Assembly (NCBI GenBank): GCA_028687435.1
Contig: JAQUAF010000004.1
Location: 66,344-130,343, forward strand
Direction: 5' to 3'
Length of the DNA stretch: 64,000 nucleotides
Origin: Verrucomicrobiia bacterium
GTDB lineage: Bacteria > Verrucomicrobiota > Verrucomicrobiia > JABWAM01
How positions within the stretch are numbered: the first letter of the stretch is position 1; every line of letters starts with the position of its first letter. A program made the position numbers and the translations under genes. Shown here piece after piece: positions 4,377 through 62,384 of the stretch. Under the pieces are notes generated by a model. The model did no database searches, was not told the origin of the DNA, and worked only from the letters and a program-made list of their open reading frames with translations.

Positions 4377-4447
4377 GGAAGCGGTGCGGGAGCCCCGCCC
4401 TCCATTGTCGATATGATGGAAAAAGGAGGGCGGGGCTCCCGCACCGC
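4377..4447. repeat. Family-A hairpin repeat (REP/MITE-like), complete copy
   Basis: GCGGTGCGGGAGCCCCGCCCTCC ... GGAGGGCGGGGCTCCCGCACCGC: a perfect 23-bp inverted repeat around a 20-nt loop. It sits in the divergent intergenic region between the cNMP-protein gene and the GntR gene. Confidence 0.85.
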
Positions 4448-4540
4448 TTGTTGTGCAGCCTTCGGAATCCAACTGATTCAATTTGACAATTCACTTGGAC
4501 TAGTCTAATATGTGAATGTTTTGTCAATTGGACTATACCA

Positions 4541-5560
4541 ATGAAACCGCTTTTTCCTTTGGATATCAACATCGACAGAAAGGCACTTTCACCGGCCTGG
4601 GAACAAATTGCGGGACGGATCCGGACCATGATTCGCGAGGGTGACCTTCGGCCCGGAGACCGGTTGCCGACGGACCGGGAGTTGGCCGGAAAACTGGACA
4701 TGGCGCGCGGCACCATCCGGCGCGCTTACGAACAATTGCAACGGGAACAGTTGATTGAGATGACCCAGGGACGGGGAAGTTTTGTCCGGCACCCTGTGTC
4801 GTCACGGCATCCGGGCAAGGACGAACAGGCGGATGTTCTGGTGGAAGACATGATATCCAAACTCGAAATGCTGCGGTTTTCACACGAGGAAATCCGTCAA
4901 CTGCTGGAATCAAAGCTCCATGAACGCGAACAAGTGATGAAACGGCTGGAAATCGCGGTGGTGGATTGCAATCCGGAATCCCTGGCGGCATATGGACGGC
5001 AGTTGAATCTTCCCTCCTGCATCCGGCTCAAACATCACCTGCTGGAAGACCTGAAAGGCGCGTCAAAACCTTGCGCGGCGCTGGGGGACGTTGATTTGGT
5101 GATCACGACCGCCACCCACCATCATGATTTGCAACGAATCATCCCGGAATTGGCCGACCGATTATGCCAGGTGGCACTGGCCCCGACGCCCCGGACGATT
5201 GTGGAACTGGCCTCGCTTTCGGCCGGACAGAACGCGGGCGTTTTCTGCCAAAGCCGGAGATTTCAGGAAATCGTCTGCCGCGCCCTGGCCGAACTGCAGG
5301 TGGCCGGCGCCCCCCACCCCGCCTTGCTGTTCGCGGAAGAAAAAAATCTGGCGGATTTTCTGAGGAACAGGAAGTCATTGATTGTTCCACCAGGATTTGA
5401 CCCGGACTTCTCCCCCAAACGCGCCGGCATCATCCGTGATTTCACCGAAAAAGGGGGGCGTTTGATCTGCTTTGATTATCAGGTCGAAAAAGGATCGCTG
5501 CTTCACATCCAGGAACGCATCAACTCGCTTCTCAACGCCAAGATCTCAAATGAAAACTGA
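4541..5560 (+). CDS. GntR family transcriptional regulator with C-terminal effector domain
   Basis: 339 aa. N-terminal winged HTH ([43 protein letters not shown]). Sits directly upstream of the glutamate mutase operon and overlaps the glmS start. Confidence 0.75.
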
Positions 5561-6014
5561 GACTCCAAACGATTCATCAACGCCCCCGCCAACCATTGTC
5601 CTGGGAGTCATTGGAGCGGACTGTCATGCGGTGGGCAATCGCATCCTGGAACGCCTGTTCAAAGACGGCGGATTCAAGGTGGTCAATCTGGGCGTGATGG
5701 TTTCACAGGAGGAATTCATTTCGGCCGCCATTGAAACCGGCGCCCGGGCCATCTTGGTTTCGTCGCTTTACGGTCATGGCGAAATGGATTGCCAGGGGTT
5801 TCGAGAAAAATGCTCCGAAGCGGGTTTGGACGAAATTTTGCTTTATATTGGCGGCAACCTGGTGGTGGGAAAGACGGATTTTTCACTGGTGCGGGAAAAA
5901 TTCCTGAAAATGGGTTTTGACCAGGTTTTCCCTCCAGGCGCCGCGCCCGAGGAGGGAATCGCAGCTTTGAAAGAGGATTTGGCGCGGCGCATCGTCGCAA
6001 AGGCCGGCAACTGA
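5550..6014 (+). CDS. glmS: Glutamate mutase sigma (S) subunit, the B12-binding methylaspartate mutase small subunit
   Basis: MKTETP... [67 protein letters not shown] closely matches Clostridium GlmS/MutS, with the DxHxxG B12 motif. The track ORF 5472.. is an N-terminal over-extension; the ATG at 5550 overlaps the GntR stop (5558-5560). Confidence 0.9.
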
Positions 6015-6024
6015 CATCCCGATC

Positions 6025-7398
6025 ATGAAATATCTCCTGGCAGACATCGGCAGCACTTTTACCAAGCTATGCCTGGCGGATGTCGAACAGCGAACCGTGC
6101 TGGGGACAACCATCGCGCCAACAACCGTGAAAACGGATGTCAACCAAGGGGTGGAAGCAGCCAGGCAAAAGCTCGGGAAAAAAGCGGAGGATGTCGAAGC
6201 GACCCTGGCTTGCAGCAGCGCCGCCGGAGGATTGCGGATGGTGGCTGTGGGATTGATCCCCAATCTCACCGCCGAGGCGGCCAGACTGGCGGCGCTCGGC
6301 GCTGGAGGAAAGGTGGTGGAAACCTTTTCCTTTTTGCTGACAGAGGCGGATTTGGGAAGGATACGGGCCTTGCGACCGGACATCCTTTTGCTTTCCGGCG
6401 GAACGGACGGCGGAGACGTCAAACACATCCTTCACAATGCCCGGCAAATCCAAAACCATCTGCCCGATGTGCCGCTGATTGTGGCAGGCAACCGTTCCGC
6501 CCATGATGAAATACGCCGAATCCTGGACGGACGGCGGGAAGTCTGGTTTGTCGAAAATGTCATGCCGGATTTCAAGCAACTCCGGCTGGAACCGGCCCGG
6601 GAAGCCATCCGCCGGGTTTTTCTGGAACGGATCGTCGAGGCCAAGGGATTGACGCGATTGTGCGACCGGGCCAGGATTCTGATGCCGACTCCGGAAGCGG
6701 TTTTCAAAGCGGCGGTGTTGTTGTCCAAGGGGATTCCAAACTCGGAAAAAGGGATGGGGGAATTATTGATCGTGGATATTGGCGGGGCGACAACCGATGT
6801 TTATTCCTGCGCCGAGGGTGCCCCCGCCCTGGCCACGGTCCGCCAGCGGGGATTGAGGGAACCTTGCGAAAAAAGAACAGTGGAAGCGGACATCGGCATG
6901 CGTCACACCGCGTCTCATCTTCTGGAAGAACCGGCTCTCAAGGAAATCATCCGGGAAAACGGCGCGGAATGGGAGGAGATGCAAACCTGGACGCAAACGC
7001 TGACCGGCAATCCCGGGCGCCTGCCGCAGAGCGAAAAAGAACAAGCCATGGACACCGCTTTGGCAAGTGCTGCCTGCGAGGTTGCGGTTGGCCGTCATTG
7101 CGGACGATGGGAAGAGGCGTTCTGTCCCGACGGCCGTTTTTATTTTCAGGATGGGAAGGATCTTTCCAATGTCCGCCGGGTGATCGGGAGCGGAGGTCCG
7201 ATTGTCAACAGCAAGACACCCCGGGCGATCCTGGCAGGAGCGAAAAAGAAAGACGGGGAACCGGCGTTGAAACCCCGGGATCCCAACTATTATCTCGACA
7301 CTCAATATCTTCTTTGGGCCATGGGATTGCTGGCGGAAGTGGATCGCGCGGCAGCCTTGGAAATCATGAAAAAAAACATTTTGCCATTGACGAAATAA
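6025..7398 (+). CDS. glmL: Glutamate mutase-associated protein GlmL (MutL-type accessory/reactivase-like, ASKHA fold)
   Basis: 457 aa. MKYLLADIGSTFTKL..TVLGTTIAPTTV parallels Clostridium cochlearium GlmL (MKNALLIDFGSTYTKV..). Position between glmS and glmE is as in the clostridial operon. Confidence 0.8.
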   Translation: MKYLLADIGSTFTKLCLADVEQRTVLGTTIAPTTVKTDVNQGVEAARQKLGKKAEDVEATLACSSAAGGLRMVAVGLIPNLTAEAARLAALGAGGKVVETFSFLLTEADLGRIRALRPDILLLSGGTDGGDVKHILHNARQIQNHLPDVPLIVAGNRSAHDEIRRILDGRREVWFVENVMPDFKQLRLEPAREAIRRVFLERIVEAKGLTRLCDRARILMPTPEAVFKAAVLLSKGIPNSEKGMGELLIVDIGGATTDVYSCAEGAPALATVRQRGLREPCEKRTVEADIGMRHTASHLLEEPALKEIIRENGAEWEEMQTWTQTLTGNPGRLPQSEKEQAMDTALASAACEVAVGRHCGRWEEAFCPDGRFYFQDGKDLSNVRRVIGSGGPIVNSKTPRAILAGAKKKDGEPALKPRDPNYYLDTQYLLWAMGLLAEVDRAAALEIMKKNILPLTK

Positions 7399-7430
7399 AC
7401 CGAACCGCGCGCAGCAATTTGCTTTGGCCA

Positions 7431-7490
7431 CGCAAGCGGGGCTCATGCACCGCTTTGCCCGGCAAACATTGAAATTCCTGAACATTTGAA
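7431..7490. repeat. Family-A repeat, right-half partial copy plus tail
   Basis: AAGCGGGGCTCATGCACCGC followed by the TTTGCCCGGCAAACATTGAAATTCCTGAACAT tail motif. Located inside the operon between glmL and glmE. Confidence 0.7.
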
Positions 7491-7523
7491 CTGGATTCCC
7501 GCAGTTTCGTATTTTTCGAGAGC

Positions 7524-9020
7524 GTGAAAGGCAACAAAACCCCATCCCAAAACAGCAAGGCAACCGTGGAACTTCAAAATAAAAAAATCCCGCTGAATGA
7601 TTTCCTGACCATGCGTCCGGCGGTTCTGGACGTCTGGCCGGCAGGCAGGGAGGCATCGCGTCTGGAAGAGGCCTTTGCCTATCATCAGAACATTCCCGAA
7701 CGCAAGCGGTTCCACCTGTCCCTGCAAAAAGCGGAAAAAACGCAAACCACCCTGGCCCAACCCCGGGCCGGCGTTTGCCTGGTGGATGAACACATCCGGT
7801 TGCTGAATTATTTGCAAAACGAAGGAGAGGCCGATCTTCTGCCCACCACGATCGACAGTTACACGCGGCAGAACCGTTACGACGAAGCCCAGAAAGGAAT
7901 CGAGGAAAGCCGCAAAAACGGACGGTCGTTGTTGAATGGATTCCCGGCAGTCAATCACGGGGTAAAAGCCTGCCGGGCCATCATCGAAGCCTTGGAAAAA
8001 CCCGTGGAAGTGCGCCACGGAACACCGGACGCCCGCTTGCTCAGCGAAATCACGCTGGCGGGCGGTTTCACCTCGCTGGAGGGAGGCGGAATTTCCTACA
8101 ACATCCCCTACTCCAAAAATGTGCCGCTGGAAAAAAGCATTGCGGATTGGCAATACGTGGATCGTCTCGTCGGATTTTATGCCGAAAACGGGGTGATCAT
8201 CAACCGGGAGCCCTTTGGCCCGTTGACCGGCACCCTGGTGCCTCCCTGCATCTCCAATGCGGTGGCAATCATCGAGGGATTGCTGGCGGCGGAACAGGGA
8301 GTGCGGGATATCACGGTGGGTTATGGCCAATGCGGAAACATCTACCAGGATGCCGCGGCCATTGTCTCGCTGCGGCAGTTGTGCCGGCAGTATCTGGAGC
8401 GTTTTGGATATGGGGACGTCTGCCTTTCAACCGTCTTCCACCAGTGGATGGGCGGGTTTCCCATCGAGGAAGCCAAGGCATTCGCGGTGATCGCCTGGGG
8501 AACCACGGCGGCGGCTTTTTCCCGCTCAACCAAGGTGATCACCAAATCGCCCCACGAAGCAATGGGAATTCCAACCGCGGAAGCCAATGTCAACGGCTTG
8601 CGGGCCACCCGTCAAATCCTGAACATGCTTAAATCGCAACAATCCCTGGATTCGGCGCTCATTGAACGGGAGGCTGGGCTGATCACCCGTGAAACAACGG
8701 CTTTGCTGGAAGGAACTCTTCGTCTTGGGGATGGCGATCTGGCGCAGGGAACGGTGAGAGCCTTCCAAGCCGGAGTGCTGGACATCCCTTTTGCCCCCAG
8801 CCGGGCCGCTCATGGATCGGTGGTGCCGGTGCGCGATCTGCACGGGGCGGTTCGTTTTCTGGATTTTGGCGCACTTCCTTTCGATGAGGAAATCAAGACG
8901 TTTCACCGGGAAGTGATCGCCGAACGGGCCAAAACCGAACGGCGGGCCGTGTCCTTCCAAATGGTGACGGACGATATCTATGCCGTCAGCAAAGGCCGGC
9001 TGGTGGGGGCGCCCAAGTGA
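7524..9020 (+). CDS. glmE: Glutamate mutase epsilon (E) subunit, the methylaspartate mutase large subunit
   Basis: 498 aa, GTG start. N-terminal region ([26 protein letters not shown]) and length match GlmE/MutE. Confidence 0.9.
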
Positions 9021-9044
9021 TACACAATGCACGACGCCAAACTT

Positions 9045-9138
9045 GGCAAGGCGGTGCGGGAGCCCCGCCCTCCGTCATTTTCCAATAAATGGAGGGCGGG
9101 GCTCCCGCACCGCTTTTTCCGACAACCTTCAATTTTTC
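9045..9138. repeat. Family-A hairpin repeat, complete copy plus tail
   Basis: GGCAAGGCGGTGCGGGAGCCCCGCCCTCC..GGAGGGCGGGGCTCCCGCACCGCTTTTTCCGACAACCTTCAATTTTTCC, between glmE and mal. ORF 9027.. falsely starts in it. Confidence 0.85.
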
Positions 9139-9164
9139 CAACCACTCAAACGGAGCCACCAACC

Positions 9165-10466
9165 ATGTTGCACATAACAGACATCATTTGTTCGGCCGGC
9201 AAAACCGGGTTTTATTTCGACGATCAAAAGGCCATCAAAACCGGCGTCCCCCACGACGGTTTCTTTTGTGGAGGCAAACCGCTCACGTCCGGTTTTCATT
9301 CCGTCCGGCAGGCGGGAGAAAGCATTTCAGTGATGCTTTTGCTGGAAGACGGGCAGGTGGCTTATGGCGATTGCGCGGCAGTCCAGTATTCCGGCGCCGG
9401 CGGACGCGATCCGGTCTTCCTGGCCAATGAATTCATCCCCTTGATCCTGAAAAAAGCGGCGCCTTTGCTGAAAAACCGGCCATTGAAGGAATTCCGTCCC
9501 CTGGCGGCGGAAGCGGACTCCTTGGAAAACAAAGGGCGGCAAATTCACACGGCCATCCGCTATGGTCTCACACAGGCCATTCTCGACGCTGTTGCCAAAG
9601 CCACCCGCCGGCTACCTTGCGAGGTGATCGCCGATGAATATGGCACGTCTTTGGCCAATAAACCGATCCGGATTTTTACCCAGTCGGGAGATGACCGGTA
9701 TGTCAATGCGGACAAGATGATCATCAAGCAGGCCGATGTCCTGCCGCATGGCCTGATCAACCATGTTCCTGACAAACTCGGCCGCAAAGGGGAAAAACTG
9801 CCGGCCTATGTGAAATGGCTCCGAAAACGCATCCTGGCCAAACGGGCGGACGCGCGATATCAACCCGATTTACATTTGGATGTTTACGGAACCATCGGCC
9901 AGCTTTGCGGAAACGACACGGAGAAAATGGGCCGTTATCTGGCCCGCCTGGGAAAAGCCGCGTTTCCTCTAAAACTTCGGATCGAGGGGCCCATGGACAT
10001 GGGGGAACAAATCGCCCAGTGCGAAGCGCTGGCCGCCCTGCGAAAATTTTTGCGCCAGAACAAAATCCACGTGGGAATTGTGGCCGACGAATGGTGCAAC
10101 ACGCTCGAAGACACACGCCTGTTTGCCGATCGAAAAGCGGGGGACATGATCCAGATCAAAACTCCGGACCTTGGAGGGATTCAGAACAGCATCGAGGCGG
10201 TTCTCTACTGCAAACAAAAGGGTGTGGGGGCTTATCTGGGAGGAACATGCAACGAAACCGACCGCTCCGCGCAAATGTGCGTTCACATTGCGCTGGCCAC
10301 CCAGCCGGACCAGATGTTGTCCAAACCCGGCATGGGGGTGGATGAAGGTTACATGATTGTTTACAATGAAATGCGCCGGACCCTGGCCCTGCTGGCCGCA
10401 AAAAAACGCAAATTTAAGTCCCGGCTGAACCGGGCCTGTCCGACGCTGGAAAAAAAACCTGTCTGA
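9165..10466 (+). CDS. mal: 3-Methylaspartate ammonia-lyase (beta-methylaspartase)
   Basis: MLHITDIICSAGKTGFYFDDQKAIK...ESISVMLLLEDGQVAYGDCAAVQYSGAGGRDP...KTPDLGG...GGTCNETDRSA is near-collinear with C. tetanomorphum MAL. The in-frame ATG at 9165 is the true start; 9027-9164 is repeat sequence. Confidence 0.9.
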   Translation: MLHITDIICSAGKTGFYFDDQKAIKTGVPHDGFFCGGKPLTSGFHSVRQAGESISVMLLLEDGQVAYGDCAAVQYSGAGGRDPVFLANEFIPLILKKAAPLLKNRPLKEFRPLAAEADSLENKGRQIHTAIRYGLTQAILDAVAKATRRLPCEVIADEYGTSLANKPIRIFTQSGDDRYVNADKMIIKQADVLPHGLINHVPDKLGRKGEKLPAYVKWLRKRILAKRADARYQPDLHLDVYGTIGQLCGNDTEKMGRYLARLGKAAFPLKLRIEGPMDMGEQIAQCEALAALRKFLRQNKIHVGIVADEWCNTLEDTRLFADRKAGDMIQIKTPDLGGIQNSIEAVLYCKQKGVGAYLGGTCNETDRSAQMCVHIALATQPDQMLSKPGMGVDEGYMIVYNEMRRTLALLAAKKRKFKSRLNRACPTLEKKPV

Positions 10467-10488
10467 AAACCATCCACATCTCATTTTC

Positions 10489-11865
10489 ATGAAAACATCG
10501 AACTCCCCAAAAATGGATGAAATCCGGATTCTCTCTCCCACAGCCATTCTTGGCTACGGTTTCCCCAGGGAATCTTTTCTGCGGGGCATGAAGGCATCGC
10601 CCCACGTGATCGCCGTGGACGCCGGCAGTTCCGACCCGGGACCGTTCTACCTTGGACATGGCAAATCATTCGTGGACCGGAATGCCGTCAAACGGGACTT
10701 GGAAATCATGATCACCCAGGGGAAAAAACACGGCATCCCCGTGATCATCGGCACGGCGGGGGGAAGCGGCGCCAAAGTCCATGTGGACTGGTGCATGGAA
10801 ATCATCCGGGAGATTGTCCGCGCCCACCGGCTGCGGCTGCGAACAGCCCTGGTTTATTCCGATGTCGAAAAGAAAACAGTCATCCAAAACCTGCAAAAGA
10901 AAAAAATCCGCCCCCTTCCCTTTGCGCCATCCCTGACGCCCAAGATCGTCCGAAACACCACTCGCGTGGTGGCCCAAATCGGAGTCGATCCCTTGATCAA
11001 GGCGCTGTCCAAACCGGTCGATCTGGTGGTGGCGGGCCGCTGCTACGATCCGGCGGTCTTTGCGGCCTTGCCGGTGAAGGAAGGATTCGATCTGGGACTG
11101 GCGCTGCATTTGGGAAAAATCCTCGAGTGCGCCGCCATCGCCGCCTCCCCAGGAAGCGGACGGGATTGCGTGCTGGGCATCCTGAAAAAAAATTCGTTCA
11201 TCCTGCAAACCCTCAGCCCCAACCGCCGTTTCACGGTGAATTCAGTGGCGGCGCATACCCTGTACGAAAAATCCCACCCCTTTATTTTGCCGGGACCTGG
11301 CGGACATCTGGATCTTTCCCAATGCCGTTTCCGGCAAAAAACTCCGAACTCCGTGGAGGTTTCCGGAAGCCAATTCGTGCCGGACACCCCTTGCACCGTC
11401 AAGATCGAGGGCGCGGTTTGCGTGGGATACCGGACGATATCCATCTGTGGCATTCGCGACCGCATCATGATCCGGCAGTTGGACGACATTTTTGCGGCGG
11501 TGCGGGAGGCGGTGAAAAACAATTTCGGCGTCCGGGACTACCGGTTGAATTTCCGGGTTTACGGACGGGACGGAGTCATGGGGCCGCTGGAACCGGCGCC
11601 TCAAGAAATCGGGCATGAAGCGGGAGTGATCATCGATGTGGTGGCGGCCACGCAGGAGGAAGCCAACACCATTTGCGGTTTCACCCGCAGCACGGCCCTC
11701 CACTATGGCTATCCGGGCCGGATTGCCACGGCAGGCAACCTGGCCTTTCCATTCAGCCCCTCCGACACCCCCATGGGCGCCGTGTATGAATTCAGCATCT
11801 ACCATTTGATGGACATTGCCGGCCCCTCAAACCTGTTTCCGGTAAAATCAATGATTTTGAATTAA
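10489..11865 (+). CDS. AtuA-like (DUF1446) family protein, function unknown
   Basis: 458 aa. Architecture and motifs (IPVIIGTAGGSG; VVAGRCYDPAVFAALP; ILECAAIAASPGSG) resemble the acyclic-terpene-utilisation AtuA family. Followed by a DUF4387 gene, as is typical for AtuA-like genes. Confidence 0.5.
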   Translation: MKTSNSPKMDEIRILSPTAILGYGFPRESFLRGMKASPHVIAVDAGSSDPGPFYLGHGKSFVDRNAVKRDLEIMITQGKKHGIPVIIGTAGGSGAKVHVDWCMEIIREIVRAHRLRLRTALVYSDVEKKTVIQNLQKKKIRPLPFAPSLTPKIVRNTTRVVAQIGVDPLIKALSKPVDLVVAGRCYDPAVFAALPVKEGFDLGLALHLGKILECAAIAASPGSGRDCVLGILKKNSFILQTLSPNRRFTVNSVAAHTLYEKSHPFILPGPGGHLDLSQCRFRQKTPNSVEVSGSQFVPDTPCTVKIEGAVCVGYRTISICGIRDRIMIRQLDDIFAAVREAVKNNFGVRDYRLNFRVYGRDGVMGPLEPAPQEIGHEAGVIIDVVAATQEEANTICGFTRSTALHYGYPGRIATAGNLAFPFSPSDTPMGAVYEFSIYHLMDIAGPSNLFPVKSMILN

Positions 11866-12020
11866 GCCGGGCCGGAGCGCGGCAGCTTGACACCCGATGC
11901 TCGATGCTCGACGCAGAAACGATCACTCAAAGGCGGGATACGACCGCCCGGAGCCGTTCCGCCTTCGTCTCTCATCGGACTACGGCGGGACAGGCCGGGA
12001 GGTTCACCACGTTTCACGTG
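11866..12020. repeat. Long composite repeat module (shared with 62077..62240)
   Basis: AATTAAGCCGGGCC..; ACGATCACTCAAAGGCGGGATACGACCGCCCGGAGCCGTTCCGCCTTCGTCTCTCATCGGACTACGGCGGGACAGGCCGGGAGG recurs at about 95% identity at 62160-62240. Confidence 0.75.
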
Positions 12021-12104
12021 GCCGGCCCTCCATCTTTTTACGCCAAATGGAGGGCGGGGCTCCCGCACCGCCTTTTTCGCCAAACTTTGAAATTCCTTAA
12101 CATT
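12021..12104. repeat. Family-A repeat (left arm partial) plus tail
   Basis: GGCCGGCCCTCC..AAATGGAGGGCGGGGCTCCCGCACCGCCTTTTTCGCCAAACTTTGAAATTCCTTAACAT. Confidence 0.8.
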
Positions 12105-12127
12105 AAATTAACCCCTGATAAAAAAAC

Positions 12128-12448
12128 ATGAAAAAAACCCGATTGATGGATCTGGCCCATATCATCCGGAGCAAAAATTCCGGCCCTTACGAACTGACCC
12201 TGGATGTCTTTTTCAAAACGGAGAAGATTTACCAAACAGTCAAAAAAAGGAACCTGATCAACAAGACGCTGATCAAGCGGCTTTACCGGGTGGAGGAAAA
12301 TCGCATCCTAGACATCATCTATTTCGATCCCGTGAGGGCGGTCAAGGCCACCATCGCCCGCCCCATCCCCTCGGGAGCGGTGGAGGACACGGATGTTTAC
12401 GGGGCGCAACAACACATGCCGCTGGTGGACGCCATCATCAATTTTTGA
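12128..12448 (+). CDS. DUF4387-like small protein
   Basis: 106 aa. IRSKNSGPYELTLDVFF...VYGAQQHMPLVD matches the DUF4387 pattern that normally accompanies AtuA-like genes. Confidence 0.55.
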   Translation: MKKTRLMDLAHIIRSKNSGPYELTLDVFFKTEKIYQTVKKRNLINKTLIKRLYRVEENRILDIIYFDPVRAVKATIARPIPSGAVEDTDVYGAQQHMPLVDAIINF

Positions 12449-12564
12449 AGCAGGTTTTCAGGCATTTAGACTGTCAGGCCCGGACAATTTGTTGTCGTGA
12501 AATTTTGAATTAGCGCCTGACAACCTGATAGTCTAACAGCCTAACAGTCTAAACACCTAATTTT

Positions 12565-13533
12565 ATGACAAAAGATGTCAGACATGACAATTTGCGATTT
12601 GCCGCCTACTACGCGCCCAGGGGACGCGACCGTCTGCAATGGCTGGGCGAAAGCATCGCCCAACGCTATCTCTCGGCCCGCGACCAGTTGATCGGGATCA
12701 TGGGCGAAAGCGGCACAGGCAAATCCTCCATCATTCGCGGCATGTTTCCGGGACTTGAGTTGACCAATGACGACGAGGGGGTGAATGTCCGCCCCCTTCC
12801 CCTGATCCGCATGCACCGGGAGGAACATTTCACGGCGCATACCCTGCATATTGATATTCGGTTTGAGATGGCGTTTACACAGCCGGGTGAAATGGCCGAA
12901 GCCATCCGCGCGGCGCTCAAGCAGGGCAAACGGGTGGTGGTGGAACATTTCGAGGAAATCCATCCCCTGTTGAAAATCAACGCCCAGTTTCTCATGGGAG
13001 CCGGGGAGGATATCCTTGTTGTGCGCCCCAATCTTTTCGGCCCCTTTCCGGAAGACATCGGCAAAGTGATCAACCACACGGCCATTTTCCGCAAAATGGC
13101 CCATTCGGCGGAAGACATCGTCACCATGATTTTGGAAAAGGAATACGGCATTTCAAAACCCGAAAGACATGGCGATGTGCCGCGGGGATTTGTCCTGCAG
13201 TTCGCCAAGAAACCCTCATGCCTGGACCTTGGCCGCCTTGAGGAACGGGTCAAAGCCATCATTCAACAAGGGGTGGACATCAGTTATCTGGATGAGGGAC
13301 ACATCATGATCGGCAAGGAAGCCTACGCCTGCACCGGTCCCCGGATCCATGTCCGCAATTCCTCGGAAATCCGCAATTTCCGTCTGATGAAGGAACTGGC
13401 CTACGATGAAATGACCGACAGCCATTGCCTGGTTGGGCTGGTGGCCGAACCCCGCGCCCTCCACTTCATCGACCGCCACCCCGACATCGTGCCGGCCAGC
13501 GTGAAAGACCTCGTGGCCAACAGCACGTATTGA
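12565..13533 (+). CDS. P-loop protein, HPr-kinase C-terminal-domain-like (hypothetical kinase)
   Basis: 322 aa. Walker A GESGTGKSS followed by a TNDDEG segment, analogous to HprK GxSGxGKSE...ADD. Confidence 0.45.
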   Translation: MTKDVRHDNLRFAAYYAPRGRDRLQWLGESIAQRYLSARDQLIGIMGESGTGKSSIIRGMFPGLELTNDDEGVNVRPLPLIRMHREEHFTAHTLHIDIRFEMAFTQPGEMAEAIRAALKQGKRVVVEHFEEIHPLLKINAQFLMGAGEDILVVRPNLFGPFPEDIGKVINHTAIFRKMAHSAEDIVTMILEKEYGISKPERHGDVPRGFVLQFAKKPSCLDLGRLEERVKAIIQQGVDISYLDEGHIMIGKEAYACTGPRIHVRNSSEIRNFRLMKELAYDEMTDSHCLVGLVAEPRALHFIDRHPDIVPASVKDLVANSTY

Positions 13534-13544
13534 TCCGCAAAAAA

Positions 13545-13823
13545 TCACGGCATCCCATCATTTTCAGAGATCATTCCCGCGACCGTAACATCGGATTTTA
13601 AAATTTCCCCCTCCGGCGCATGCTTCCACGTCGTCAAGCCCATGCAAAGTTTCATGGCATCCGCGCGGGAATAAATGATTTCCGCTGCGGTCTGGCCGGT
13701 AATGGCCCAGTGCAATTTGTTTTGCGCCGTGGCAAAAAACTCCTTTGTCAAAGGCGCGTTGGGATCATAATCCACCGCCAGCGCATAAAGGTCCGTGATC
13801 TTTTGGTGGAACCGGCGCAACAA
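13545..13823 (-). pseudogene. RhuM-family (virulence/Fic-associated) protein, internal fragment
   Basis: 92 aa. LYALAVDYDPNAPLTKEFFATAQNKLHWAITGQTAAEIIYSRADAMKLCMGLTTWKHAPEGEILKSDVTVA matches only the central part of about 330-aa RhuM proteins. Both the N and C portions are missing. Confidence 0.5.
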
Positions 13824-19390: not shown

Positions 19391-20467
19391 ATGAAACTTT
19401 CCCCCCGCGAAAATCTTCTGAGAACCCTGCGCCGTCAGGGATTCGAGCAAGTCCCGGTCGATCCGGGATGTTTTTGCCCCTCCCAAACCGAGGCGTTTAA
19501 AAAACGCTTCGGCCACGAGGATCACTACGCCTTTTTTCAAGCGCCCATGCGCCACGCGGGAATCCCCACCGTCCAATCCTTCAATGGATGGAAAGAAAAA
19601 TACTACCGCCACGAGGAACTTCCGGCGGACACGGAATTTGACGCCTTCGGGGTGGGGCATTCGCATCGACCGGGCTGTTTTCACATGACCCGGATGCATC
19701 ACCCGTTGAAAGGGGAAGGGTTGACCGCGGACGACGTGCTCCGCTATCCCCTGCCCAAGCTGGCCGAAAACGCCCGTTCCCATTTGCGTGAAAAATGCGA
19801 CCAGTTGCATCAGGATGGCTTGGCGGTCATGGGCTGCCTGGGCTGCACGGTTTGGGAATGTTCCTGGTACATTCGCTCGATGGAAGACCTGATGGCCGAC
19901 ATGCTGACCGGGGAGGAAACCGCCGCATTGTTGCTGGATCGCGTGAGCGATCTTGCCTGCGAACGGGCGCGGTGCGCGGTGGAGGCGGGCGCGGACTTGC
20001 TTCAACTCGGAGACGACATCGGCATGCAATCATCCCCCATGATGAGCCTGGACCTGTGGCGTCAATGGCTGCAACCCCGGCTCAAAAAAGTGATCGATGC
20101 GGCGCGGTCCGTCCGGCCGGACATCCTGATTTTTTATCATTCCTGCGGTTATGTCCTGCCGTTTTTGGACGGTTTGATTGAGGCGGGGGTGGATATCCTG
20201 AATCCCGTCCAACCCGAATGCATGCAATTCGAGGAAGTCCATGCCAGGGTCGGAACACGGCTGTCGTTCTGGAGCACCATCGGGACGCAAACAACCCTGC
20301 CTTTTGGAAAACCCGATGAGGTGCGCGAGACGGTATGGCGGAATCTGCGCATCTGCGGCAATCAAGGCGGAATCGTGATCGGCCCCACCCACATGGTGGA
20401 ACCGGAAGTGCCGTGGGAAAACCTGATGGCCATGAAAGAGGCCTGCGAAAATTTCAGATTAAATTAA
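19391..20467 (+). CDS. Uroporphyrinogen decarboxylase (URO-D) / MtaA-like family protein
   Basis: 358 aa with a URO-D-fold signature (ERARCAVEAGADLLQLGDDIGMQSSPMMS...ILIFYHSCGYVLPFLDGLIEAGVDILNPVQPE). Confidence 0.7.
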   Translation: MKLSPRENLLRTLRRQGFEQVPVDPGCFCPSQTEAFKKRFGHEDHYAFFQAPMRHAGIPTVQSFNGWKEKYYRHEELPADTEFDAFGVGHSHRPGCFHMTRMHHPLKGEGLTADDVLRYPLPKLAENARSHLREKCDQLHQDGLAVMGCLGCTVWECSWYIRSMEDLMADMLTGEETAALLLDRVSDLACERARCAVEAGADLLQLGDDIGMQSSPMMSLDLWRQWLQPRLKKVIDAARSVRPDILIFYHSCGYVLPFLDGLIEAGVDILNPVQPECMQFEEVHARVGTRLSFWSTIGTQTTLPFGKPDEVRETVWRNLRICGNQGGIVIGPTHMVEPEVPWENLMAMKEACENFRLN

Positions 20468-25334: not shown

Positions 25335-25440
25335 ACGCCCAATGCTCGATCCGCCTTCGCTCTGCGAACTTGCGCCTTCGCCAAAGCTTCGGCGTCACAA
25401 GCTGGCGAGACAAGCGCCGAAGCAAAAAACCGGCAAGGCG
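25335..25440. repeat. Family-B module (variant)
   Basis: CTCGATCCGCCTTCGC..CTTCGGCG..GAGACAAGCGCC, related to 624-676, 40262-40320 and 62102-62160. Confidence 0.6.
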
Positions 25441-25451
25441 GTGCGGGAGCC

Positions 25452-25553
25452 CCGCCCTCCATTCATTTCGCGACAAATGGAGGGCGGGGCTCCCGCACCG
25501 CCTTTTTCGCCAAATATTGAAATTTCTGAACATGAACCAAGACAATTTTCTCA
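25452..25553. repeat. Family-A hairpin repeat, complete copy plus tail
   Basis: CAAGGCGGTGCGGGAGCCCCGCCCTCC..GGAGGGCGGGGCTCCCGCACCGCCTTTTTCGCCAAATATTGAAATTTCTGAACAT. Confidence 0.85.
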
Positions 25554-37777: not shown

Positions 37778-37880
37778 GGCAAGGCGGTGCGGGAGCCCCG
37801 CCCTCCACTTGTCGGAAAATGATGGAGGGCGGGGCTCCCGCACCGCTTTCCCACAAATATTGAAGTTCCTTAACACTGAA
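37778..37880. repeat. Family-A hairpin repeat, complete copy plus tail
   Basis: GGCAAGGCGGTGCGGGAGCCCCGCCCTCC..GGAGGGCGGGGCTCCCGCACCGCTTTCCCACAAATATTGAAGTTCCTTAACACTGAA. Confidence 0.85.
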
Positions 37881-40564: not shown

Positions 40565-43500
40565 ATGAAAAACGATACCCCTTTCAAGGCAAGCCGTTAT
40601 GCGCGGCTCTTGTGGAACGAATGGATGATGCAGCCGGACGATGACTGCTACAATATCGGCTTTGTCTATGAAATCACAGGGAAACTGGATGTGGAGCGTC
40701 TGAAAACCGCCCTGCAATGCTATATCAACCGGAACCCGCAGATCCGTTCCTCTTTCAGTGAAAAACAGGAAACCCTGTATCAAACCTTCCAAAGCCAAAT
40801 CAAGGATCCCATCGTTTGCCAGGATTGCTCGGGCCAAGGACAAGAGGAACTCGACGGTCTGATCCAAAAGCTCTGCGGGCAAAGCTTTGATCTCTCCCAT
40901 GCGCCGCTGTTTAAGTTTTCCATCCTTAAAGCCGATGACCACCGGCACTACTTGGCGTTGCGTTTTCACCACATCATCGTTGACGGGACCTCACTCGAAA
41001 AAATCCCCCTGTCGATTGCCGCATTGTATAACGCCACCGATCCATTGCTCCCCGGAGAAGTCGTCGGCGAACCGCCCCAACTGGGCGCTTATTTGGAATA
41101 TGAAGAGGCGCTTTTTAAGAAGTCATCCCTGCCGGAAGCTCTGGATTATTGGGAACAATTGCTTGGCGGCCGGAGCTTGTATGTCAATTTGTCGAAAAAA
41201 GAAAGCGCCCCCAAGAATCCTGATTTTTCAGTCAAAATCTTCAATTTCGATTTGGACCAGAAACTGACGAATCTGATTTCCAATTTGGCCCGGGAAAATT
41301 CCGCCACGGTTTTCCATGTCATGGCGGCGCTCTGGAGCGTTTTCCTGAAAAAATATTCCGGCCAGGAAAGCATTGCCTTTGTTTATCCTGTCGGAATGCG
41401 CCCCGGAAACATGATGGACATGGACGGTTATGCCGTGAACTCGCTGCCGATGGTCACGGATTATCGCGAAAATACGACATTCGTTTCTTTGGTCGGCCAA
41501 ATCAAGGAACAGCGGAAACTCGCCAAACGCCATCAATTCGCCCCTTTTGACGAGATCGTCAACCGATATAATAAAACGGCGCCTTCCAAATACGGCCAAC
41601 AATACAATAACTATCTGAACGCGGTCATCAGCCAATCCAACGAGTTGCTGGACTCGCCGATGGACTTGAAAGGGGTGCAGGTCAAAGCCATCCCCTCCTC
41701 AACCCTGTTCCATGCGGAAATGGGATTGATCTATCGCAAAGAACCTCAGACCCTTCATTGCCAGATCTGTTACAACCAGGCTTTGTTTGAAGATTTTGTT
41801 TACGCGTCGGCAGAAAAGGATTTTACGCGTTTGGCGGAAAGGTTGCTGGCCGATCCCCATCAAGAGGTTGACGCGGTGTCCCTTCTTGCCGAGGGCGACC
41901 GGCAACAAATCCTTTGCGACTGGAACAAAACAGACGTTCCCTTTTCCAAGGAAAAAACCATTTCCGCGCTTTTTGAAGAGCAGGTGGAACAAACACCGGA
42001 CAACCTTGCCGTGGTCTATGAAGGAAAAAGCCTGAGCTACCGGGCTCTCAATCAACAGGCCAATCAACTGGCCCATGCCATTCGGGGGAAATACCGGGAA
42101 TTCCATGGGAAAGAGATCCAAGGCGATACGCTGATCGGGTTTTATATGGAACGCGGCATGGAAATGATTGCCGGCATCCTGGCGATCCTGAAGGCCGGGG
42201 GCGCCTACGTGCCATTTGATCTCGCCGATCCTGAAGAAAGGTTGAAATTCAAGCTTGACGACAGCAATTGCAAAATGATCGTTGCCAGCGCGGAAACCCT
42301 TGAAAAATTGCAGCCGCTGACCGGCGCAAAAATTCCAACGATCAGCATCGACGCCGAGGCGCGCGAAATAGAAAAAAGACCGGCCTCCAACCCGGCGCCG
42401 GTGAATCATTCCAGAAACCTGGCCTGCCTGATCTATACGTCGGGATCGACCGGCCGCCCCAAAGGCGTGATGACCGAGCACTGCGGCGTGGTGAACTTCA
42501 TCGACTATCACCGGAAGAACTTCGTCCCCCTCAAAAAGCATCATCATGTCCTGCAAAGCATTTCCCTGAGTTTCGACGCCTCATGGACCGAATTGGCCCT
42601 CGGGCTTTTTACCGGCTCAACTCTGCATATCGTCAAGTCGATGGCGGAAATGACCGAAAAGCGGATGCTCCAATTTCTCAAGGACCATGAAATCAATGTT
42701 TTCATCTCGACTCCCGCGATGGTGGAAAACCTGTCCAAAAAAGACAGCGCCAGCCTGGAGATCATCATTTGCGGGGGCGAGGTCTGCGAGAAATCAATCA
42801 TGGATGACTGGAGCGACCGGGTCAAATTTTACAACGCCTACGGCCCGACGGAAGCAACGATCTGCGCCACCTATTCCGCGCATCGCCGGAGCAAATCCAA
42901 CCGGAATATCGGAAAGCCGTTGCAGAACAAAAAAGCTTATATCCTTGATGCCAGGCTTAACCCGGTTCCCAAGGGGCTGTGGGGTGAGTTGTATATCGGG
43001 GGAGAAGGCCTGGCCAGGGGCTATTGGAATCGGCCGGAATTGACCCGGGAACGGTTCATGGATGATCCCTTCGCCCCTGCCGCGGGATCGAAAATGTATA
43101 AAACGGGTGACATGGTCCGCTGGCTGGAAGATGGCAGCATCGAGTTTCAGGAAAGAAACGACGACCAGATCAAGATCAACGGCTTCCGGGTGGAACTGGG
43201 TGAAATTGAAAACAAGCTTGCGCAATGCCCCGCCCTCTCCCGCAATGTCGTGGTCTGCAGGGAACGGGCGGGAAGAAAATATCTGGCCGCCTATTATACA
43301 ACCCGCGACAAAATTGAACCCGACGCCTTGAAAAAGCACCTTGCCGGTTTGCTGCCGAATTACATGGTGCCGGGTTGTTTCCTCGAACTGCCCAGGCTTC
43401 CCCTGACTCCCAACGGCAAAATCGACAAAAAAGCGCTTCCCGATCCCCATTTCGAACCAGCCAAGGAAACCTATGCGCCGCCGGAAAACGCAATCCAACG

Positions 43501-46500
43501 GCAATTGTGTCAAACCATGAAGGAGGTGCTGGGATTGGATAAAATCGGAATAAGGGACGACTTCTTCGCCAACGGCGGGGATTCGATTGCCTGCCTGCGG
43601 CTGAGCGCGAAGTGCCGCGACAAGGGGCACGCCCTGAGCCCCAGGGATATCTTCGAAAAACGCACGGCGGAAAATCTTTCCCGCTTGATCCAGGAGAACA
43701 AGGGAAAAGGGGCGGCTCCGGATGATCAGGAGGACTTTTCGCAAACATGCCGGGATTTTCTTCCCGCCGGGCTTTTGGCGGAAATCCATCGCCGTTATGC
43801 CGTTGAGGAAATCCTTCCCGCAAACAGCCTGCAGCAGGGGTTTTTGTATCACCTATTGAGCCATCCGGGTGACGACGCCTATCACATCCAAATGCTGGCG
43901 GACTATCGGCAAGGGATTGACGTCACGAAATACGAACAGGCCTGGAAATACGCCGTAAAAAAATATCCCCCCATGCGGACTTGCTTCAATTGGAAGGAAG
44001 AAATCGTCCAAATCATCTGCCGGGATATCGATTTCAAGCTCAACTTTTCCGATGTTTCCAACCACGAAAATAAAGAGGCGGCCATTGATGAAATCCGCCA
44101 TGCCGATCGGAAAAAGGGTTTCGATCTCGCCCAACCGGGGCTTTTTAGGATTTATCTTGTCAAACAGGGCGAGAGCCATTACACGCTGTTAAAAAGCGAA
44201 CATCACAGCATCACCGACGGCTGGAGCAATTCCCTGCAGTTGAATTATGTCCATGCGGTTTACAAGCAACTCCTGAAAAATCAGTCTCCCCCAAACGAAC
44301 CCGACGAAGCCTACTGCGCCGCGCAAAAACACCTCTTTGTCAACCAGGATAAAGCGCAGGCTTATTGGAACGACCGGATCAAAAAAGCCGCTCCGGCCCA
44401 TGATATCCGCCCGCTCTTTTCGGCAAACCAAAATCCCGATGCCATGAAGAAAATCAGGGAACCCCGGGAATATTCCCTGCGGATAGACGGCGCCCCCTAT
44501 GATCTCATTAAAAAAGCGGGACTCAAGGCCGGGGCAACCCTGAATGTCCTCATTCAGTTCGCCTGGCACAAACTTCTCTCCCTCTATGGCGGCAACAGCC
44601 CGACCGTGGCGGGAACGGTTGTATCGGGAAGAGCCCTTCCCATCAAAGGCATCGAAAACAGCGTGGGTCTTTATGTCAATACGCTGCCGCTGATCGTTGA
44701 CTGGCGGGAAAAAACCGTGCAGGAGCAATTGAATCAAATTCATTCCGCCATGATGGAGATGGACGAACATAGTTCCATGAACATCGGCCAACTCCATCGG
44801 GGGGGGCATCGGCTTTTTCACAGCCTCTTCGTATTTGAAAACTACCCCCTGCCCGAGGAAGAAACCCCGGGGCCGGAAGCCCTTGAATTTACGCTGAGAA
44901 AAGCAGCCGGCAAACTCGATTTCCCCCTTTGTTTGGCGGTCTTTGAAAAGGATCATTCGCTTCTTCTCCAACTGAACTACGATGGCGCTTGTTTATTCCC
45001 GGAAGATGCCAGAAAGCTGATGTCCCAAATGGAGCTGATCATCAACGAAATCCCGGACAAACTCGGGGTTTCCCACCACGCAATCTCCGCTCTTTCCCCC
45101 CTGGATTACGAAAAAACGATTCATCTCTGGAACAAGACCGCCTTGGACTATGGGAGGGATCAAACGATTGCCGAAGCCTTCGAAGCCCAGGCGATGAAAA
45201 CCCCCGGGCAGACCGCCCTGGTCTTTGGCGGGGAAAAATTGACCTATCGGCAACTCAACCAACAGGCCAACCAAATCGCGGCCGCGCTCAAAAAAGATTA
45301 TCTCCAGAACTTCGGGGAAGCCATCAAACCCGGCGCCCTTGTCGGGCTTTACCTGGATCGCTCCGTCCAGATGATCGCCGCCATTCTCGGCATTCTCAAA
45401 GCCGGCGCCGCCTACGTTCCTTTTGACCGCGCCGATCCCGCCGGGCGGCTGCAATACAAAATCGAGGATTGCGCCTGCAAGATGATGCTGACCTCCTCGG
45501 CATGCGCGGCGGATCTGGCCTTTTTGCCGCCCGGACGTCCGGCACGCTGGGAGATCGACCGGCATACGACGGAAATCGCCGCCCAGCCGGATTCCAATCC
45601 GAACCGCATCAATCGCGCCACGGATCTGGCCTATGTCATCTATACCTCGGGTTCGACCGGCCAACCCAAAGGGGTGATGCTGGAGCACTACGGAGTGATC
45701 AACCTGGCGGCGTCCCACCGCCAAAGTTTCAACATCGGGGAACAATCGACGATTTTGCAATTTGCGCCGGTGAGTTTCGACGCCTCGGTCTCGACGCTGT
45801 TCACCACGCTGCTCAACGGCGGCACGCTTTGCCTTTGCCCGGAAGAGACGAGGAAAGACACGCAAAAATTGGGTGAACTGATCGTCCAGAACCGGGTGAC
45901 CCTGATCGATATTCCAGCCAGGTTGCTGGAGGTTTTCCCCCGGGATCTCGACCTGTCGCATTTGCGTTGCATCATCACGGCCGGGGAGGTCTGCGACCAA
46001 AAGACCATGGACTACTGGAGCGGCAAAGTGAGGTTGATCAACGCCTACGGGCCAACGGAAGGCGCCGTCTGCGCGACCTTTTCGATCCATGCGAAAGGGA
46101 AAAGCAACAAGAACATCGGCAAACCGATTGGAAACAAGAAAGTTTATGTTTTGAACAGCGACCTCACCCCCCTGCCGGTGGGGGCGCCCGGGGAGTTGTA
46201 CCTTGGCGGGGACGGACTGGCGCGGGGTTATCTGAACCGGCCGGAGATCACGCGGGAGCGTTTTATGGCAAATCCCTTTCTAAAGGAAGGCGGACCCACG
46301 CTGCGTGAGGCGAGGATTTACAAGACCGGGGATCTGGTGCGCTGGCTGGACAACGGCGAGCTGGAATTCTTGGGACGAAACGACGACCAGGTGAAAATTC
46401 ACGGCTACCGGATTGAACTCGGGGAAATCGAACAACGGCTGCTGTCGTATCCCGGGATCTCGGGCGGCGCGGCAAAAATTCAGGACTGGAAAGGCGCCCC

Positions 46501-62240: not shown

Positions 62241-62322
62241 GGCCGGCCCTCCATCATTTCGCAGCAAATGGAGGGCGGGGCTCCTGCACCGCTTTTTCCA
62301 ACAAACATTGAAATTCCTGACC
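62241..62322. repeat. Family-A repeat (left arm partial) plus tail
   Basis: GGCCGGCCCTCC..AAATGGAGGGCGGGGCTCCTGCACCGCTTTTTCCAACAAACATTGAAATTCCTGACC. Confidence 0.8.
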
Positions 62323-62384
62323 GACCCTCGCCTAAAGGCGAGGGGTTTACCCATCCCAAACAAGAGACTCTAAAATCCCGAATC

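Follow-up and report, generated by a model that had tools for sequence, protein, structure and literature searches.

A verrucomicrobial glutamate mutase-methylaspartase operon with a predicted CmlAB-type citramalate lyase

In the classical clostridial methylaspartate operon, a GntR-glmS-glmL-glmE-mal core is accompanied by genes for a two-subunit mesaconase, MesAB, and for an ACP-dependent CitDEF(C) lyase. The glutamate-fermentation cluster of E. coli O157:H7, found in its E. coli version in 1123 of 5426 complete genomes of the species, has the order glmS-glmL-glmE-mal-DUF1446-DUF4387 and carries, in addition, gltP, fumD (encoding a mesaconase), cobO and a gene for a LysR regulator (PMC4682846). 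The position of DUF1446 downstream of mal was already known to Kronen and Berg (2015, PMC4682846), who did not find the citramalate-cleaving enzyme of E. coli O157:H7. Exactly this gap in the pathway fits CmlAB of Raoultella planticola, an enzyme of the Berg laboratory that was deposited (PDB 9ERQ and 9EVF) under the names "Citramalate lyase subunit A (cmlA)" and "B (cmlB)". Chains A and B are 91% and 85% identical to E. coli proteins whose genes come straight after mal, and so belong to the same type of operon. According to a 2026 preprint (bioRxiv 10.64898/2026.01.16.699985), this enzyme splits citramalate directly into pyruvate and acetate; in the same study an E. coli acetyl-CoA auxotroph grew on mesaconate via Cml together with the endogenous FumA, a route backed by isotope labelling. 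The literature that we searched contained no primary peer-reviewed paper on CmlAB, and its function is given by the depositors' names and by this one preprint, in which the enzyme was used.

The locus described here lies in a 64-kb window, the whole stretch of DNA that was analysed. Eight genes follow one another on its plus strand, in the order GntR, glmS, glmL, glmE, mal, an AtuA-like gene, a DUF4387 gene and a P-loop protein gene, with REP-like palindromes around and between them:

4381-4447, perfect REP-like palindrome ahead of the GntR gene, each of its two arms 23 nt long (hairpin -66.5 kcal/mol, z = -9.5)
4541-5560, plus strand, GntR-family regulator with an N-terminal HTH (PF00392, 66.7 bits)
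5550-6014, plus strand, glmS, B12-binding small subunit of glutamate (methylaspartate) mutase (NF002612, 221.6 bits; cut-off 110 bits)
6025-7398, plus strand, glmL (mutL), accessory/reactivating protein of glutamate mutase (NF040745, 545.8 bits, cut-off 475 bits; PF13941)
7566-9020 (ORF 7524-9020), plus strand, glmE, catalytic subunit of glutamate mutase (TIGR01503, 738.5 bits; cut-off 390 bits)
9051-9113, REP-like element between glmE and mal, a perfect 23-bp hairpin with a T-run after it (-66.8 kcal/mol, z = -10.8)
9165-10466 (ORF 9027-10466), plus strand, mal, 3-methylaspartate ammonia-lyase with MAAL_N and MAAL_C domains (TIGR01502, 546 bits; cut-off 286 bits)
10489-11865, plus strand, cmlA, AtuA/DUF1446 family, predicted large subunit of citramalate lyase (PF07287, 81.5 bits; match to 9ERQ_A)
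12049-12071, REP-like half-copy within the 262-nt cmlA-cmlB gap
12128-12448, plus strand, cmlB, DUF4387, predicted small subunit of citramalate lyase (PF14330, 135.6 bits; match to 9ERQ_B)
12565-13533, plus strand, P-loop protein with a Walker A motif (322 aa)

The genes named in the preliminary description are all present on the plus strand where it had placed them, and GlmS, GlmL, GlmE and Mal exceed the cut-offs of their curated, equivalog-level NCBIfam models. GlmS carries the B12 motif DxHxxG as GADCHAVG. The start of glmE is likely the GTG at 7566, where homology begins, the ORF itself opening at GTG 7524; for mal, homology backs the ATG at 9165 within an ORF that opens at 9027. The close contacts reported earlier also hold, namely the glmS ATG at 5550 overlapping the GntR stop (5558-5560), a gap of 10 nt between glmS and glmL and one of 22 nt between mal and the AtuA-like gene. 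The spacing is not uniformly tight, however, as had been claimed: four junctions are wider, with 125-167 nt between glmL and glmE, 144 nt between glmE and mal, 262 nt between the AtuA-like and DUF4387 genes and 116 nt between the latter and the P-loop gene.

Two of these gaps hold REP-like arms (at 9051/9091 and at 12049). They belong to a dispersed element that occurs about seven times in the window as a copy or half-copy; 11 of its arms were found there, and none would be expected by chance. The hairpin at 9051-9113, which matched no Rfam family at gathering score, could serve to attenuate transcription within the operon or to stabilise the mRNA. The cmlA-cmlB gap, in which no convincing ORF was seen, exceeds that of all 77 related loci (13-132 nt between tblastn alignment ends), and in E. 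coli (L004) and on a Klebsiella plasmid (L002) the two genes even overlap. Together with the strong REP hairpins, this gap could disturb co-expression of the operon.

On sequence grounds, the AtuA-like/DUF4387 pair is an orthologue of the two-subunit citramalate lyase CmlAB. Both proteins resemble chains A and B of 9ERQ and 9EVF over their full length: CmlA matches 9ERQ_A with E = 2e-157 and 56% identity across residues 12-444 of 458, and CmlB matches 9ERQ_B with E = 1.6e-27 and 54% identity. The families and sizes agree as well (AtuA/DUF1446 of ~456 aa, DUF4387 of ~105 aa), cmlB adjoins cmlA on the same strand, and in both organisms the genes lie directly 3' of mal. What differs from the Raoultella system is the verrucomicrobial host, the predicted status of the activity and a cluster without fumD, gltP and cobO. 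Pseudomonas AtuA, the type member of PF07287 from acyclic terpene utilisation, shares the Pfam family with CmlA but acts in a different pathway; CmlA matches the model weakly and partially (81.5 bits, best stretch residues 68-217). None of the atu-type neighbours (geranyl-CoA carboxylase, acyl-CoA dehydrogenase, hydratase) occurs in the window, where the neighbours are glm/mal and housekeeping genes.

The operon thus very probably serves glutamate breakdown by the methylaspartate pathway with CmlAB as citramalate lyase, the activities of these particular proteins being predicted from their relatives. GlmS and GlmE would form an adenosylcobalamin-dependent mutase, assisted or reactivated by GlmL, that converts L-glutamate to (2S,3S)-3-methylaspartate; from this, Mal would remove ammonia to give mesaconate. 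A class I (Fe-S) fumarase encoded outside the window would then act as mesaconase and form (S)-citramalate, and CmlAB would cleave this to pyruvate and acetate, needing none of the acyl-carrier and CoA-type prosthetic-group machinery that serves a CitDEF-type lyase. Matches to citD, citE, citF, citC, citX and citG in the window were at chance level only (E > 0.5). The absence of a canonical mesaconase, stated in the preliminary description, was borne out for the 64-kb window, in which tblastn with the alpha and beta subunits of the two-subunit Prevotella enzyme and with single-chain E. coli FumD gave no match at E < 1. The mesaconase gene presumably lies in another part of this Verrucomicrobiae genome; promiscuity as mesaconases is known for class I fumarases of the housekeeping type (PMC4682846).

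The arrangement was compared with the 80 closest CmlA loci in GTDB species genomes. These contain cmlB in 77 cases, mal in 68, glmE in 59, the P-loop gene in 56 and a class I fumarase in 35-36, so that the linkage of DUF1446 and DUF4387 to mal is conserved, whereas citCDEFXG genes adjoin cmlA in none. Enough flanking sequence was available for 44 loci, and 42 of these, our comparable loci, hold glmE, mal and cmlB together; cmlAB follows mal in all 42, across about ten phyla. Conversely, one locus (L087) and five from metagenomes read GntR-glmS-glmL-glmE-mal-Ploop-citD-citE-citF(-citC)-fumAB, with citDEF standing exactly where cmlAB would. At the loci L002, L008, L080 and L083, cmlAB accompanies a fumarate hydratase gene without glm and mal. 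This type of operon is widespread. The host is PVC-like as first described, the P-loop protein being 100% identical to an NCBI protein of a Verrucomicrobiae MAG, but a PVC host is hardly notable for an operon that also occurs in Planctomycetota.

The AtuA-like/DUF4387 pair had originally been proposed as an undescribed enzyme that replaces the class I fumarase type and hydrates mesaconate or a mesaconyl derivative. The pair's place directly 3' of mal and the lack of a class I fumarase gene in the window, shared by the surroundings of 17 of the 42 comparable loci, would suit this proposal. Yet the proteins are orthologous to ones deposited as citramalate lyase, which places them one step after the mesaconase, and use of mesaconate in the preprint took FumA besides Cml. 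Moreover, cmlAB stands beside class I fumarase genes in the other 25 of the 42 loci, and FumD and cmlAB share a single cluster in E. coli O157. Co-occurrence with class I fumarase and exchange of position with citDEF, never found in the 80 cmlAB operons, indicate that CmlAB replaces the CitDEF-type lyase and not the fumarase-type mesaconase. Action on a C5 dicarboxylate of the methylaspartate pathway is therefore upheld; mesaconate as the substrate is not, and with two PDB entries, the preprint and the published gene linkage the function is no longer undescribed. We regard a mesaconase role of the pair as largely refuted and extremely improbable.

Two other accounts question whether the operon is degradative or functional at all. 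Glutamate mutases are the source of 3-methylaspartate in some lipopeptide pathways, and the window also contains two large NRPS genes (40565-56550), whose products they might supply. However, the degradative mal and cmlAB genes share the operon with the mutase, the NRPS genes lie about 27 kb away, beyond unrelated genes that include mutL, nrdR and those for a sigma factor and for glycosidases, and the gene order is kept in many anaerobes, where comparisons covering the pathway genes brought no link to NRPS genes to notice; a biosynthetic role is scarcely credible. That the operon is a decaying, non-functional remnant would agree with the missing mesaconase gene, the REP-like insertions in two internal gaps, the cmlA-cmlB distance beyond that of all relatives and a RhuM gene fragment just downstream (13545-13823). 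Nevertheless, all eight ORFs are intact and of full length against their family models, the residues invariant in the P-loop family are kept, a neighbouring fumarase is often missing elsewhere, and a housekeeping fumarase could stand in as mesaconase. Decay is hence improbable, and glutamate breakdown through CmlAB remains the preferred reading.

The last gene of the operon encodes a conserved fusion of an ATPase with a tRNA-editing-like domain. The label HprK-like given to it earlier found no support, either from HprK/P kinase family models or from the fold, and solved structures gave no sequence-level match beyond Walker A. Its N-terminal domain is a P-loop NTPase of TsaE/ABC-like type (Walker A GESGTGKSS, Walker-B-like VVVE127), and its C-terminal half has a fold that resembles the AlaX/ThrRS-type editing domain (tRNA_SAD-like). 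The tRNA_SAD match covers the conserved Cys/His segment and is weak (E = 0.006, below the Pfam cut-off). Canonical editing domains bind zinc and catalyse through the motifs HxxxH and CxxxH. The motifs found here are similar to those of AlaX and ThrRS-N2 but depart from them, the first being HTAED and the second Cx5H; the family's invariant residues H180 and D184 (MAHTAED) and C256 and H262 (CTGPRIH) are all retained. No earlier description of such a domain fusion is known, and the context of the gene is metabolic.

Over 3600 cluster representatives make up the family. Its gene accompanies glm-mal in loci with CmlAB, with CitDEF or with neither lyase downstream; it follows mal in the CitDEF-type loci L087, L109, L110, L117, L130 and L141, and is absent, like the GntR gene, from the E. 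coli O157:H7 cluster. Within the preferred reading the protein is a putative accessory factor of the mutase-ammonia-lyase module, our best guess at its role being ATP-dependent upkeep of the mutase or proofreading against the intermediate 3-methylaspartate. We tentatively suggest, as a possibility with the odds against it, that it may be a new kind of factor dedicated to this module. If it proofreads, an ATP-dependent trans-editing or deacylating enzyme would guard translation from this non-proteinogenic amino acid, for example by hydrolysing 3-methylaspartyl-tRNA; if it maintains the mutase, the protein would be a new type of B12-enzyme maintenance factor.

Positions 4483-4511, upstream of the operon, carry a promoter-like sequence of the sigma-70 type (TTGACA-17-TAATAT), such sites being no commoner in the region than by chance. 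The GntR protein is likely the regulator of the operon; a GntR-type protein has been listed as a putative regulator of glutamate degradation (PMC4682846). Homologues of its gene precede glmS in 16 of the 80 related loci and occur also in L086 and L087.

We identified eight co-directional genes in window 4541-13533 with Pfam and NCBIfam, which confirmed the gene content and order of the preliminary description:

4541-5560, + strand, GntR-family regulator (Pfam/NCBIfam)
start ATG 5550, + strand, glmS (NF002612, 221.6 bits against a cut-off of 110)
between glmS and glmE, + strand, glmL (NF040745, 545.8 bits against 475)
homology-supported start GTG 7566, + strand, glmE (TIGR01503, 738.5 bits against 390)
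homology-supported start ATG 9165, + strand, mal, methylaspartate ammonia-lyase (TIGR01502, 546 bits against 286)
10489-11865, + strand, AtuA/DUF1446-family protein (cmlA)
12128-12448, + strand, DUF4387 protein (cmlB)
12565-13533, + strand, Walker-A (P-loop) protein

The GlmS protein contains the cobalamin-binding DxHxxG motif. The tight spacing described earlier holds where the glmS ATG at 5550 overlaps the GntR stop and for the glmS-glmL (10 nt) and mal-AtuA (22 nt) gaps, but the other junctions are loose, measuring 125-167 nt (glmL-glmE), 144 nt (glmE-mal), 262 nt (cmlA-cmlB) and 116 nt (cmlB-P-loop gene). On either side of the operon are housekeeping genes with no relation to it, among them recA, mutL, nrdR and a sigma factor gene. 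That no class I fumarase lies nearby is true for the entire 64-kb window, which also contains no citrate-lyase-type genes. The operon type is already known and its host here is verrucomicrobial; the 100% identity of the P-loop protein to a protein of a Verrucomicrobiae MAG bears out the earlier guess of a PVC bacterium. Such an operon is not unusual in this group, as had been supposed, the closest CmlA match in a scan of GTDB species genomes being a Planctomycetota MAG.

A search of PDB sequences settles what the AtuA-like/DUF4387 pair is predicted to be, namely the citramalate lyase CmlAB. Residues 12-444 of the AtuA-like protein matched chain A of 9ERQ/9EVF, 'Citramalate lyase, subunit A (cmlA)', with 56% identity (E = 2e-157), and the DUF4387 protein matched chain B, 'subunit B (cmlB)', with 54% identity (E = 1.6e-27). 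Since these chains share 91% and 85% identity with the E. coli proteins encoded directly after mal, the solved enzyme comes from the same type of operon. Our literature search found no primary paper on CmlAB and no paper on DUF4387, only a preprint that used the enzyme. In that work the genes were named cmlAB and cloned 'for each subunit', growth of an E. coli acetyl-CoA auxotroph on mesaconate required both endogenous FumA and Cml, and the route was backed by isotope labelling (bioRxiv 10.64898/2026.01.16.699985). Kronen & Berg 2015 had observed that DUF1446 follows mal in Enterobacteriaceae and Dictyoglomus, and had sought the citramalate-cleaving enzyme of E. coli O157:H7 in vain (PMC4682846); CmlAB closes this gap. 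The pair would fill a missing C5-dicarboxylate step, as had been proposed, but orthology to CmlAB makes that step a lyase rather than the hydration of mesaconate, and its function is already described in the PDB entries and the preprint. The original interpretation is therefore partly supported: it had the right pathway and the wrong step, and the function is not novel.

At this locus, glutamate would be converted to (2S,3S)-3-methylaspartate by GlmSE with GlmL, and 3-methylaspartate to mesaconate and ammonia by Mal. A class I fumarase encoded elsewhere would presumably yield (S)-citramalate from mesaconate, E. coli FumA and FumB being promiscuous mesaconases (PMC4682846), and CmlAB would then cleave (S)-citramalate to pyruvate and acetate.

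A scan of GTDB species genomes, with four aligned CmlA sequences as the query, returned at least 582 relatives. We counted neighbouring genes by tblastn with reference proteins at the best 80 of these (55-63% identity), which belong to Bacteroidota, Bacillota, Planctomycetota, Acidobacteriota, Spirochaetota, Chloroflexota, Sumerlaeota, Elusimicrobiota, Actinomycetota and other phyla. The suggested linkage of DUF1446/DUF4387 to mal was evident, with cmlB at 77 and mal at 68 of the 80 loci, followed by glmE (59), glmL and the P-loop gene (56 each), glmS (52) and a class I fumarase (35-36). None of the 80 had citC/D/E/F/G/X. Forty-four loci had sufficient flanking sequence for their gene sets to be classified: 25 combined glm, mal, cmlAB, the P-loop gene and a fumarase, 13 had all but the fumarase, as in the window, four had glm, mal and cmlAB only, and two had cmlAB and a fumarase without glm or mal. 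Judged from these classes, cmlAB occurs together with the fumarase-type mesaconase instead of substituting for it.

The enzyme that CmlAB displaces, taken earlier to be the mesaconase, is instead CitDEF. The order GntR-glmS-glmL-glmE-mal-Ploop-citD-citE-citF(-citC)-fumAB occurs in a Methylomusa-like locus (L087 10001-15063) and in the metagenome loci L109, L110, L117, L130 and L141, with genes of the ACP-dependent lyase in the exact place of cmlAB. This swap is a non-orthologous displacement of citramalate lyase, and it backs the CmlAB assignment without recourse to the PDB names. Such a clean exchange lends genomic support to an assignment that is thinly published.

A plasmid operon carries the same pair apart from glutamate fermentation. 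On the conjugative Klebsiella pneumoniae plasmid pHNLC3 (L002 9998-19898), which bears blaCTX-M-24 and fosA3, cmlA (57% identical to that of the window) and cmlB lie in a LysR-controlled operon with genes for two aldehyde dehydrogenases, glucose 1-dehydrogenase, alcohol dehydrogenase, fumarate hydratase and succinate-semialdehyde dehydrogenase; glm and mal are absent. The presence of both enzymes without glm and mal suggests that fumarase and CmlAB form a reusable module for mesaconate breakdown.

The CmlAB reading would complete the glutamate pathway in Verrucomicrobia, Planctomycetota, Bacteroidota, Bacillota and other phyla. Databases still name the two proteins 'acyclic terpene utilization AtuA family protein' and 'DUF4387', so genome-scale models overlook the final reaction of glutamate fermentation across hundreds of species. 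This annotation gap and the P-loop protein are the main reasons why the locus matters.

The P-loop protein, which combines an NTPase domain with an AlaX/ThrRS-editing-like domain, is conserved and represents the remaining unexplained part of the classic pathway. It had no above-threshold match in Pfam, NCBIfam or PDB sequences, and a profile of its family retrieved from PDB only Walker-A matches to ABC transporters; we reject the label 'HprK-like'. The family comprises more than 3600 cluster representatives and is labelled 'alanine-tRNA synthetase second additional domain-containing protein' at NCBI. AlphaFold modelling with 48 homologues gave pLDDT 82 and pTM 0.77. Invariant among these homologues are the Walker A residues G47, G50, G52, K53 and S54, and others including E127, H180 and D184 (MAHTAED), and C256 and H262 (CTGPRIH). 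The latter two motifs are similar but not identical to the canonical HxxxH and CxxxH of editing domains. A 314-aa hypothetical gene upstream of glmS in E. coli, considered as a homologue because it equals the Prevotella gene in length, proved unrelated.

The P-loop gene is linked to the mutase/ammonia-lyase module, because it follows glm-mal whatever the lyase and is missing where cmlAB and a fumarase stand without glm-mal (L002, L008, L080 and L083). Most loci with the gene carry cmlAB downstream of glm-mal, L087 and others carry citDEF there, and L089, which has neither cmlAB nor citDEF, carries hgdD-like genes. Its presence in L087, L109, L110, L117, L130 and L141 means that it also belongs to the classical CitDEF-lyase operon type. 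Genes for proteins similar to 2-hydroxyglutaryl-CoA dehydratase (HGD-D) and its BcrAD-type activator occur within or beside glm-mal clusters (L089 7229-8968, L136 4869-6700, L116 578-2400).

Two hypotheses for the P-loop protein are ATP-dependent upkeep of the mutase and hydrolytic proofreading against 3-methylaspartate; a literature search on 3-methylaspartate with aspartyl-tRNA synthetase found nothing relevant. At 21 of the 112 P-loop loci, rph (RNase PH) and rdgB (Ham1) directly follow the gene, as at L089 10001-12343 and L138 9980-12307, and many of these loci lack glm/mal within 10 kb. This adjacency may hint at a tRNA-related role, yet it more probably reflects lineage-specific synteny where the glutamate cluster ends.

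Terminator and promoter scans gave sites no commoner than chance, the cmlA-cmlB gap held no convincing small ORF, and an Rfam scan of the operon found no cobalamin riboswitch or other family at threshold, only sub-threshold miRNA-like matches to hairpins of a dispersed REP-like element. This element, a perfect 23-nt palindromic repeat (GGAGGGCGGGGCTCCCGCACCGC) with 11 arms in the window against 0 expected by chance, occurs in intergenic gaps as four full palindromes and three half-copies (768-790, 4381-4447, 9051-9113, 12049-12071, 25438-25501, 37784-37846 and 62270-62292). Upstream of GntR and in the glmE-mal gap the element forms complete hairpins of about -67 kcal/mol. The cmlA-cmlB gap exceeds that of all 77 relatives in length, and a half-copy inside it is probably responsible for part of the excess. 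The half-copy at 62270-62292 overlaps the start of a 501-aa enolase-superfamily (MR_MLE_C) ORF (62268-63773, +), so its true start is probably further downstream.

A 92-aa ORF (13545-13823, -) lies between the P-loop gene and mutL; its match to the RhuM virulence-protein family is confined to the middle of the profile (positions 92-168 of 252), and it is probably a gene fragment. The uroporphyrinogen decarboxylase (URO-D) family protein at 19391-20467 (+), adjoined on the opposite strand by an AraC-type regulator gene, may resemble corrinoid-dependent methyltransferases rather than the haem-synthesis enzyme. Two large non-ribosomal peptide synthetase (NRPS) genes at 40565-46960 and 46957-56550 (+; 2131 and 3197 aa) encode condensation, adenylation, carrier and thioesterase domains; next to them, on the other strand, comes an MFS transporter gene.
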